Origin: Escherichia phage naam
Reading direction: 5' to 3' (one strand)
Length of the DNA: 64,000 nt
Sequence record: MN850630.1
Part shown: piece by piece, positions 26,089 through 34,473 of the stretch
Layout: each line of letters opens with the position of its first letter
How positions within the stretch are numbered: position 1 is the stretch's first letter
The notes under the pieces: model-generated
Told to the model about the DNA's origin: nothing
Database searches by the model: none
The model's input: only the letters and a program-made list of their open reading frames with translations
Program-made: the position numbers and the translations under genes

Positions 26089-26106
26089 TTTTTTAACTGA
26101 ATTATC

Positions 26107-26132
26107 AAGGGGCTTAGGCCCCTTTCTTTTTG
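26107..26132 (+). terminator. rho-independent terminator
   Basis: AAGGGGC-ttag-GCCCCTT + TCTTTTTG. Confidence 0.65.
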
Positions 26133-26135
26133 TCT

Positions 26136-28580
26136 GCTCTTCCCCCTACCATAAACGGCCCTACCTGGCAAGTGGAATAATTGACGAGCCATCAATCCTA
26201 CACACTGTACAAACATACATGTAAAATAGCTATTGCATAACCTTTCATTGTGTGGTAGCGGTGCTATTTTTTACCAGTTTTCCTTCCAAAATTGCACGTA
26301 ATGCCGCTATTGCACAAATTTTAACCTGATGCACATCTCCAATATCTTGTCAACAACTAAAAATCTTTATAAGTCATACACTTACACAGCATCGAAAGCG
26401 TGTTCTACGCGAAAAATCGAGTATAACTATAGCCGCCAGATCTCAGAATTCACGTACGCACGCCATTCTATAGCCTGCAAAGTATTTATTCCAACCACAG
26501 AATAACGGAATAGTCAATACCTGCATAAAATAATTATTAGTGTAAACTGCATAACATAAATCAGCTCAGGTGTCAACATTTTTCGTAAACAGTCCGAAAT
26601 TATCACGATGAGTTATCATAAACAGAGAAATCTTTAGTCGTCTAATGTTTACTGTACATTACTATACTGACTGGAATCATTAGATGACTAAGAGAAAGAT
26701 AAGAAATAATTAATAATGTAATTGTTTTACCTGTAACAATAAGGCAACTATGCAAACGAATGGCATGGCGCGACGGAGTCGCGACATAATATAAAAGCAG
26801 TAACCATCACCCCCGTGATAGTTTGTCTGCAATCTATTAATCAGATCATAGTTGCCTTGTATTCAGTTAATCATGACATGATAAGCAAGGCAACTATAGA
26901 TCTTCTAATAGTTGCCCTGCTTTTATATTATGTCATAGAAACACCCGAAGGGGTGACCAAAGGTCACCTGGCATAGCCAGTGAAAGATTATTAACTTGCT
27001 AATAGTTATCATGCAAACGAATGGCATGGCTGATTATCGGTGTGTAAACAGTCAATCATGTAAATGGTTAGCATGTGAACAATCAGAAATGTAAACAATC
27101 CAGTGTGTAAACTAATAGGTGTGTAAAAGTGTCATGTTGTGTCAGTTAGGTCACATTATGTCAGACAAGTTTTTCTCCTCTTTGTCAAGTGCTGCATGAA
27201 AAATTTACAAGCTTGTATGGTAGCATTTTTGCGGCCCTGTTTACATTCAGTGTTGTATGTATAATCCTTGTTGTGTGGGCGTTTAGACGTCTGGACGGTC
27301 AGAAGTCTGCAGGTTAATATCTAATCTATCGGCTGCTAACTATATCCCACACAAATAGTAAGAAATATAATTGTTATGTGCGTAAACAGTAACCCATGTT
27401 ATCAATCCCTGTATGTATCGCCAGTGGTGCGCATAATGGGTATTATGTTAAATTGCCCGTAATGATAACAGTTCTCACAATGATAGGTATTCTCATTCAC
27501 CCCCACAAGATAGGTTGCAAATGTTGTGCCACTGTGTGAACGGCCTGGCCTATTAATTTGCCTCACTGCCTTGATATTTGAGAATTATTATAAGAATGAG
27601 AAGTATTCCCATTTCGTCCGCCTGGCAGCACTCCTGTAGGTCAGGTCAAAATCGTGGTAGAACTAGACCTATCCGGATATTTCTGGCTGACTCTTCAGGT
27701 CTGTGTGGGAAAAGCCAACCTCTCCGGCGGGGCAGGGGGAGGTCAATTAAAAAATTTACGTGGTGTATGAAGCGCTCTTCAGGTAAGGCAGGTATTATGG
27801 GATGAAACCCGCTTCAGGCAATGATATTTGTGGGTGTGATATTTGCTGGAAGGCCAGATATGACGGGACTCCCGGCGGGGCAGGGGTAGTACAGACAGGG
27901 AAAATATGGGGATGTAGTTGGGGAAATTGATCAGACAGGTAGAGTATGGAATATGTTACAGGTATGTTAAATATGGAGGTTGAATATCTGTAGGATTTGT
28001 GTGTAAAATCAAAGACTTAAGGGGTGTTGTGGTATTTTCTATAAATAATTCAAGTTTAATAGGCAATATTTGTCTCTATCCGCTTTGTGTGGTAAACAGA
28101 TTCAGATGAGATTGGTTTACAAGTGTATACATAATATACAAATTAAAGATACAAGAAACCCCCCTCCCCCTTCGGCTACCATTCACCTTTTCCTCTGACT
28201 GGTACTTAAACACTTATTCAGACTCTTCAGGTTATCACCCATATATCATATGGCAGTGACTGGTGTCCTCCGGCCCCTCTTTCGTCACCCGTCCGCTTCG
28301 CCATGCTAATGCCATAGCTAATGGTTCGGTTGTTCACCCTGTTCACTCAGGTGTATCTCTATACCCCTTCAAACCGAAGAGAACAGAAAACCCGAATTAC
28401 TCGGTAAAAGAAAAGAGAAGAACTTAATTTTATCAGGATAGGCAAGAATGTCAAGGCATGACTGCTCACTAAACAAGCAAACAGTCATGTGTGGGAGGTA
28501 AGTGATTGTGGTGGTAGGAAATTTAGTTGAAAGATGTGTTATAGGTGCTTCCAGCACTTTAGCCGGGCAGCTAATTGTGT
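26136..28580. other. repeat-dense non-coding region between convergent gene blocks
   Basis: No convincing ORF; direct and inverted repeats, GTGTAAAC-like motif cluster, GC-rich direct repeats. Confidence 0.6.
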
Positions 28581-33666: not shown

Positions 33667-33936
33667 TTATTCCTCTACAATCTCATACACATCCGGAGTT
33701 ACAATCAACTCTTCTCCGTTACCCGGTGCAACAAACACCACCATGCCTTCAGGTGTGTGCTTTTTAGCCATCTCGATAACATCTTCTCGCAGAGCTGGCT
33801 CCATCAGATCAAAACCTTCACCCAGGGCATCACGAACCACCTTCATATAGTCAACTGGTTGTGCTTCGACAATCATACCTTCAACCAGTTCACAGTTTTT
33901 GTCTGCCAGCTCAGTTTTGAATAATTTAATTTTCAT
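33667..33936 (-). CDS. small acidic protein (paralog family C)
   Basis: 89 aa. Confidence 0.55.
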   Translation of the reverse strand: MKIKLFKTELADKNCELVEGMIVEAQPVDYMKVVRDALGEGFDLMEPALREDVIEMAKKHTPEGMVVFVAPGNGEELIVTPDVYEIVEE

Positions 33937-33962: not shown

Positions 33963-34064
33963 TTAATAGCCGTAACCTAACACATTAACTACAACTGCGA
34001 TTGCAAACATAATTTCAAAGCATGCAATCTCTACATTTGGGACTAATTTCTTGATCACACCCAT
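33963..34064 (-). CDS. small membrane peptide (33 aa)
   Basis: GAGGTG RBS; hydrophobic. Confidence 0.35.
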   Translation of the reverse strand: MGVIKKLVPNVEIACFEIMFAIAVVVNVLGYGY

Positions 34065-34073
34065 TGTAGCACC

Positions 34074-34391
34074 TCATTCTCTAAAGTCAATCTTTACTTT
34101 GCCTTTCCCCTTACCTTTCTTTCCACCGCATTTAGCCAGTTGACGTGCTGCAACATCTACCATACGGTCAGTTGCCTCGTAAGCATCACTGCCTTTAGCT
34201 TTGGCAATAACTTCTTTTCCAGAATTGTCAAAAATGAACGCCATAACTTCCTGGTGATCATTTTCAACTTTTACACTCACACGTGCATAGTTGGCAGAGG
34301 GATGCAAACGCTCCAGCTTAGACATTTTGTGGGAAATGAAAGACACCATACCTTCAGTGATTTCTACGTTGCCAGTGATTTCAATTTGCAT
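34074..34391 (-). CDS. hpf: ribosome hibernation promoting factor / RaiA-like protein
   Basis: N-terminus MQIEITGNVEITEG matches HPF/YfiA MQLNITG..VEIT; KLER and ARQLAK motifs; 105 aa with Lys-rich tail. Confidence 0.75.
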   Translation of the reverse strand: MQIEITGNVEITEGMVSFISHKMSKLERLHPSANYARVSVKVENDHQEVMAFIFDNSGKEVIAKAKGSDAYEATDRMVDVAARQLAKCGGKKGKGKGKVKIDFRE

Positions 34392-34473
34392 AACGTGTTC
34401 CTTTTAAAGAAGAGGGAACCAAACCCTCTTTGAAAACAATGATACTAAATCTGAAGCGTTGTGTCAACAGTTT

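Follow-up and report, generated by a model that had tools for sequence, protein, structure and literature searches.

Why does a lytic phage carry a gene resembling that of a bacterial ribosome hibernation factor, and what does its product do to the ribosomes of the host? The question is raised by a small open reading frame in the window, by which we mean the whole stretch of 64,000 nucleotides analyzed here, and it bears on the viral control of host translation and on whether viruses can exploit or reverse dormancy. It is also relevant to phage therapy against slow-growing bacteria. The phage belongs to the rV5-like Vequintaviruses, and its gene is already known. It corresponds to ORF144 of rV5 (ABI79209, "sigma 54 modulation factor"), annotated since the rV5 deposit of 2006, and the rV5 protein was described among virus-encoded ribosomal proteins and expressed in E. 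coli by Mizuno et al. (2019, Nat Commun 10:752, PMC6375957). The Vequintavirus HPF was later cited as already described (Mathieu et al. 2020, PMC6969025), and our search of the literature for later functional work on phage HPF or RaiA found none that was relevant. We therefore claim no new object. What we add is an analysis of selection, of promoter conservation, of synteny in a sister lineage and of the contact residues and tail, together with a re-reading of the 2019 data.

The 3 kb around the gene are 99.9% identical to phages PMBT16 and nomine and 99.8% identical to AlexBoehm, and 120 phage records match. The gene itself is 99 to 100% identical to annotated genes of rV5, AlexBoehm, nomine and PMBT16, and the protein is found at 95 to 100% identity in 117 Vequintavirus records, where its labels include "sigma 54 modulation factor," "ribosome hibernation factor," "hpf" and "RaiA." The rV5 protein shares 99% amino acid identity with it, is encoded at the same position downstream of the same promoter (P144), and differs only at the penultimate residue (G104R).

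The 105-codon reading frame starts with ATG and ends with TGA (Table 1). Its product begins with MQIEITGNVEITEG, has KLER at residues 25 to 28 and ARQLAK at residues 82 to 87, and ends in a Lys/Gly-rich tail. The original prediction had singled out this HPF-like N terminus, the two motifs and the tail, and the corresponding columns do align with those of E. coli HPF (MQLNITGNNVEIT, KLEQ and ARQLTK), with the tail occupying residues 89 to 105. The Shine-Dalgarno sequence is kept in all seven aligned Vequintavirus sequences. The genes nearby are arrayed leftward and code for small proteins, and the description of this array as acidic was borne out, since 10 of 16 neighboring products have a pI of 4.0 to 4.7; with a pI of 9.0, the HPF homolog is among the few basic proteins in it. 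An antisense reading frame at 34140..34433 (plus strand, 97 amino acids) was rejected as spurious because it is the minus frame that matches the family and shows more synonymous than amino acid changes.

Table 1. Coordinates of the HPF homolog gene, its parts and its upstream signals in the window
Feature	Coordinates	Strand	Basis and remarks
Phage HPF homolog CDS	34074..34391	minus	105 aa plus TGA stop; ORF, Pfam and TIGRFAM matches
Core HPF domain, residues 1-88	34128..34391	minus	AlphaFold2, Foldseek, dN/dS, contact residues
Lys/Gly-rich C-terminal tail, residues 89-105 (GGKKGKGKGKVKIDFRE), plus stop	34074..34127	minus	pLDDT, charge, alignment
Shine-Dalgarno AAGGA	34399..34403	minus	Read from sequence; 7 nt upstream of the HPF homolog ATG
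Predicted sigma-70-type promoter, TTGACA-17 nt-TATCAT	34439..34467	minus	Consensus scan; corresponds to rV5 P144

Profile searches agreed with the identification of the product as an HPF/RaiA homolog. Pfam PF02482 (Ribosomal_S30AE) matched over profile positions 1 to 83 of 88 with an E value of 1.8e-12 and 48.3 bits, against a curated gathering cut-off of 23.7 bits, and TIGR00741 scored 45.9 bits against a cut-off of 40.9, thus passing the threshold for the HPF/YfiA family. The best-scoring NCBIfam model was the short-HPF equivalog NF007780 (YhbH), at 55.8 bits, below its cut-off of 125 bits, and the RaiA equivalog NF007654 reached 17.6 bits against a cut-off of 158. Judged by its sequence, then, the phage protein is neither a short-HPF equivalog nor an orthodox HPF. 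The best matches by sequence among solved structures were E. coli HPF (2RQL, 4V8H and 6H4N; E of about 5e-12 over residues 1 to 89) and also V. cholerae HPF, whereas YfiA entries had E values of at least 0.3. In pairwise alignments, E. coli HPF was 43% identical to the phage protein and E. coli RaiA/YfiA was 25% identical; these identities and the low RaiA equivalog score mean that the core is HPF-like and not RaiA-like.

The predicted structure leads to the same family. The AlphaFold2 model had a mean pLDDT of 83, with block means of 85 to 95 over residues 1 to 80 and 78 over residues 81 to 90, and it showed the β-α-β-β-β-α arrangement that the original prediction expected of an HPF (β1, 2 to 7; α1, 13 to 29; β2, 33 to 42; β3, 47 to 55; β4, 60 to 67; α2, 70 to 89). 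When the model was compared with the PDB by Foldseek, the top 35 matches were all HPF, YfiA or protein Y, with TM scores of 0.8 to 0.9 and rmsd values of 1.1 to 1.5 Å to 4HEI, 2RQL and 6H4N (V. cholerae and E. coli HPF). The original prediction thus withstood both of its own refutation tests, by profile and by fold. That the phage protein is a true member of the HPF family is virtually certain. No second Pfam domain was found in the 105-residue protein; its one domain is homologous to the N-terminal domain of the long HPFs of Firmicutes, Thermus and others, but it lacks their C-terminal dimerization domain and their length of about 180 to 190 residues. We conclude that it is a Vequintavirus (rV5-type) homolog of the short bacterial HPF (YhbH lineage).

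The first structural neighbor that is not a hibernation factor was the T7 dGTPase inhibitor Gp1.2 (7U66_G; E = 1.2e-3, TM 0.45 to 0.53), and a related "inhibitor of dGTPase" was likewise found in the viral library. This likeness is weak and probably reflects a generic α/β sandwich.

Selection on the gene was assessed in GenBank phage loci (an IMG/VR scan gave two loci only). Across core codons 1 to 88 in 11 Vequintavirus copies, 28 variable codons differed synonymously only, compared with 9 that carried an amino acid change, and pairwise dN/dS was 0.02 to 0.11 at dS values of up to 0.67. The core is under strong purifying selection, and these values exclude a nonfunctional passenger gene.

A word-indexed homolog search returned near-identical phage copies, one relative at 64% identity, and nothing else. 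This relative (P0004) belongs to a sister phage lineage and is found there in syntenic position; the surrounding 7 kb of that lineage aligns to the Vequintaviruses over about 30% of its length at 73 to 82% identity. Because the 64% copy is syntenic, the gene must be older than the split between the Vequintaviruses and the sister lineage. When 1.84 billion representatives were scanned exhaustively with HMMER, no relative other than P0004 had an E value below 1e-10, and the closest true cellular proteins, which carry PF02482, were at most 45% identical. One of the near cellular relatives (P0012) is a fusion of HPF to PTS EIIA(Ntr) (HPF-PtsN), reflecting the hpf-ptsN neighborhood of the rpoN operon. 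The second-best match of the scan (P0006, 1160 amino acids, eight stretches) was discarded as a false positive caused by tandem PPC-domain repeats. The phage clade thus branched off the proteobacterial hpf lineage long ago and has since diverged, rather than having been acquired recently. With E. coli HPF as the query against the phage collection, about 117 of 129 positive records were Vequintaviruses. Proteins of the same fold and Pfam family (phrog_8990) are also found in other large myoviruses, namely, Cronobacter phage GAP32 (K4F6Q6), Escherichia phage PBECO4 (L7TII8) and Xanthomonas phage XaC1, but those of GAP32 and PBECO4 are only 16 to 26% identical to the rV5 type and so represent separate acquisitions.

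Does the gene have a promoter of its own? A consensus scan found a sigma-70-type promoter, matching the consensus at 11 of 12 positions, about 48 nt upstream of the ATG, and the rV5 record carries the annotation "Sigma70-type promoter; P144" upstream of ORF144. The −35 box and its flank (AAACTGTTGACACA) were invariant in all eight aligned sequences, including that of the distant sister lineage, in which the rest of the leader has diverged. The gene is therefore predicted to have its own conserved promoter of the host type, which suggests transcription by unmodified host RNA polymerase early in infection. Our literature search for a Vequintavirus transcriptome or proteome time course found none. 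The extended −35 motif was also considered as a recurring promoter class, but it does not recur as such within the window. A 7-bp hairpin in the leader, at the predicted 5′ end of the transcript (34410-34430, minus strand; AAGAGGG...CCCTCTT), was set aside: its stability is like that of shuffled sequence (z = −0.45), and it is partly conserved, not clearly compensated, and absent from the sister lineage.

Downstream of the HPF homolog, a 33-amino-acid hydrophobic reading frame (MGVIKKLVPNVEIACFEIMFAIAVVVNVLGYGY; 33963-34064, minus strand) starts 10 nt past the HPF stop, and its GAGG RBS overlaps that stop. The rV5 record (ORF145) and those of many relatives annotate this frame, which is probably cotranscribed with HPF. 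In a sister-lineage contig (L003), no gene is called between HPF and the next gene, which lie 83 nt apart.

We then compared the phage protein with the short HPFs of E. coli and other Enterobacterales (PDB 2RQL, 4V8H, 6H4N and 4HEI), to which it is 42 to 43% identical and with which it shares the fold, the N terminus, the KLE and ARQLxK motifs and most contact residues. The ribosome-contact residues of enterobacterial HPF were taken from bioRxiv 10.1101/2025.10.07.680626. In E. coli numbering, K26, Q29 (as R), E44, E60, D75, R83, K87 and K91 are kept in the phage clade, while seven positions are changed in the alignment (Y30L, R33S, T53F, H55F, K80V, K89G and K93G). The replacements at T53, H55, K80, K89 and K93 set the phage protein apart from the short HPFs, although residues like the changed contacts are present in some cellular homologs. 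A further difference lies in the setting of the gene, which is found outside an rpoN operon, on a lytic phage and under a predicted sigma-70 promoter.

The largest departure is at the C terminus. Past K87-C88, cellular short HPFs have a helical K-H-K-x-K-L-K-x-H end (KHKDKLKQH in E. coli); in its place, the phage protein has a Gly-Gly pair followed by a flexible, 15-residue Lys/Gly tail, and residues 91 to 105 are predicted to be disordered (pLDDT below 50 in AlphaFold2). The tail carries a net charge of +4.8 and the core one of −2.2, and the protein is basic because the tail outweighs its slightly acidic core; as a whole, it has a net charge of +2.8, compared with −1 for E. coli HPF and −3 for YfiA. 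This basic, flexible tail in place of a helical C terminus is the distinguishing feature of the phage protein.

These differences bear on the idea that the protein is an orthodox HPF, which together with host RMF would turn 70S/90S particles into 100S and so raise the dosage of HPF for ribosome storage in starved or stalled hosts. Its core is nearest to the 100S-promoting HPF lineage and not to RaiA, and length is no obstacle in itself, since the HPF of P. aeruginosa has 102 amino acids. However, the end of the C-terminal helix, where K89, K93 and H95 contact rRNA and uS7 in cellular HPFs, has given way to the Gly-Gly break and the flexible tail, and the score lies under the HPF equivalog cut-off. 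When we add that expression of the viral protein left 100S unchanged even though RMF was in the lysate (PMC6375957), this idea appears improbable.

In E. coli, HPF promotes 100S formation, whereas RaiA is thought to prevent it, in that its longer C-terminal tail would block the binding of RMF (PMC10502375). RaiA (YfiA, protein Y) has the fold and the ribosomal site of the family, and, like the phage protein, it extends past the length of HPF; the phage tail exceeds that of E. coli HPF by 10 residues. It could thus plausibly reach the same region as the tail of RaiA. The two tails are nevertheless unrelated in sequence, that of RaiA being longer with an acidic end and that of the phage protein being polybasic.

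A G/A-rich run (34097-34127), in which single-base indels arise readily, encodes the tail, and 1-nt indels shorten the tail in APECc02 (L006, 901-1206; 101 amino acids) and Murica (L007, 901-1200; 99 amino acids). The tail of the sister lineage has another sequence but is still basic. Variants are also seen near the N terminus. The HPF of phage inoa (L015, 295-594) is without GNVEIT (six residues), a loss that seems to stem from deletion between two direct repeats of GAAATCACTG, and those of V18, A6-1 and Murica have an extra Asn (GNNVEIT), as does E. coli HPF. Some of these length variants (inoa, APECc02, Murica, V18 and A6-1) could be sequencing errors.

A number of these points can be set against the ribosome experiments of Mizuno et al. 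The viral HPF was detectable in the lysate but not in purified 70S or 100S ribosomes, and the abundance of 100S and the stability of 70S were unchanged; the explanations offered were growth phase, loss of binding, or the salt wash (PMC6375957). The ribosomes came from cells at an OD600 of 1 and were pelleted for 20 h through 500 mM NH4Cl (PMC6375957). Sucrose-gradient profiles after expression, which the original prediction proposed as a test, had thus already been published.

The supplementary mass spectrometry data of that study allow the negative binding result to be judged against host factors (PMC6375957). In washed ribosomes from cells expressing bS21, RaiA was detected with a score of 22.6, and in those from cells expressing bL12, it scored 137, between S17 and S14. 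In washed ribosomes from cells expressing the viral HPF, RaiA was absent from a list of 71 proteins whose depth is about that of the bL12 list (S17, 110; S14, 101; lowest score, 11). HPF and RMF were absent from all three lists of washed ribosomes. In the crude extract of cells expressing the viral HPF, however, RaiA scored 188, HPF 210 and RMF 217, and the viral protein was present, though no more abundant than the host factors. Because host HPF, which was in the lysate, was also never kept on washed ribosomes, the negative binding result of 2019 is uninformative.

The same data bear on whether the protein has left the ribosome altogether and uses the HPF scaffold and its basic tail for another nucleic acid or protein target. 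Its absence from purified ribosomes (PMC6375957), the seven changed contact positions, the lack of an equivalog assignment and the Gp1.2 neighbor, at a TM of only 0.45 to 0.53, would fit such a change of use. Yet genuine host HPF was likewise missing from these preparations, and the most conserved rRNA contacts (R83, K87, K91, D75 and K26) are kept under strong purifying selection, and we regard such a repurposing of the fold as very unlikely.

RaiA was missing only from the sample with the viral HPF, a weak hint of competition for a shared site, although it comes from single, nonquantitative shotgun runs (n = 1). It would fit an idea raised by Mizuno et al., in which the protein is a decoy that binds weakly at the HPF/RaiA site and evicts host RaiA and HPF, with its long tail blocking RMF. 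Being displaced easily by initiation factors and mRNA, such a decoy would wake hibernating ribosomes for phage translation. Besides the missing RaiA, the salt-labile or undetectable binding (PMC6375957), the loss of some basic contacts and a tail longer than that of E. coli HPF, the tail of RaiA being thought to block RMF (PMC10502375), are all consistent with it. Against it stand the n = 1, nonquantitative nature of the RaiA evidence, the unchanged levels of 100S (PMC6375957), and the retention of the gene in APECc02 and Murica in spite of their truncated tails. We consider a decoy of this kind unlikely. The related notion that a deliberately weak, tail-modified HPF mimic acts as a viral anti-hibernation factor is offered tentatively and is itself rather doubtful; by evicting RaiA and HPF and keeping RMF off idle ribosomes, it would cancel a starvation- or defense-induced block to phage translation, yet it would give way easily when phage mRNAs initiate.

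The original prediction had favored direct interference with host translation, by shutting down host ribosomes or preventing their dimerization. Its identification of an HPF stood, but the functional part did not fare as well: published expression saw no stable association with ribosomes and no change in 100S, albeit in an assay that, we argue, could not have detected binding. In its shut-off form, the protein would block the A and P sites of free 30S and 70S and so inhibit initiation on host mRNAs. HPF-family proteins do occlude the tRNA and mRNA sites, and the predicted promoter is of the early type. Such a block would, however, inhibit phage translation equally, with no mechanism of selectivity visible, and continuous arabinose induction of the viral HPF, from an overnight preculture to an OD of 1, was tolerated with normal ribosome profiles (PMC6375957). 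Host shut-off is thus very improbable.

Taken as a whole, the evidence is best explained by an HPF-family protein that binds idle ribosomes and manages the ribosome pool, a reading to which we give slightly better than even chances. That the protein still binds the canonical ribosomal site we consider fairly likely. In the mechanism that we propose, host RNA polymerase would transcribe the HPF homolog early in infection. The protein would then dock, reversibly and in a salt-labile manner, in the decoding channel of the 30S subunit (the A/P-site region) of nontranslating ribosomes, using the residues retained on its α1/α2 face (K25, R28, D75, R83, K87 and K91 in phage numbering) and competing with host RaiA and HPF for the one site. 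Its disordered, basic Lys/Gly tail would probably run along 16S rRNA in the mRNA channel, toward the region of RMF and the anti-Shine-Dalgarno sequence. The net effect would most likely be that the phage manages the pool of idle ribosomes, which would remain intact and quickly reusable, especially in slow-growing hosts; general shut-off of translation is less likely. The physiological purpose, of which we are less confident, may be to keep the ribosome pool intact and reusable, or it may be to cancel host hibernation actively.

Several database labels at and around this gene deserve correction. Among GenBank records MT884008-11, OR062525, OR062528 and OR062530, several label the HPF homolog "ATP-dependent protease La type I," a name without support. 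RefSeq names the product "RaiA," which the RaiA model score reported above does not support. The rV5-type protein forms a PHROG of its own (phrog_12469), listed as "unknown function." An 89-amino-acid acidic gene at 33667..33936 (minus strand) that is also called "sigma 54 modulation factor" was considered as an HPF paralog and rejected, as it had no Pfam match and its name goes back to APECc02 gp082, from which many records were annotated. It seems that the name was displaced from the true HPF gene, two genes upstream, and was afterwards copied to other records. Finally, 18 records titled "UNVERIFIED: Campylobacter phage" (MG0656xx, e.g., L014 = MG065644; host, C. jejuni) are Vequintaviruses 96 to 99% identical in this region to E. 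coli rV5-like phages and are probably mislabeled or contaminant assemblies.

Elsewhere in the window, a segment of about 2.5 kb (26090-28580), at the convergent junction of the rightward and leftward gene blocks, is without any reading frame longer than 75 amino acids. It is unannotated in rV5 and AlexBoehm too. ARAGORN and Rfam found no tRNA or curated RNA family anywhere in the 64-kb window, this segment included. The GC content of the segment is 0.35 to 0.39, compared with about 0.43, and short repeats are scattered through it; for instance, 20 nt are repeated exactly in direct orientation at 26750/27011, and an 18-nt inverted repeat without mismatches lies at 26783/26917. The segment may serve as a replication origin or represent an uncharacterized RNA region.
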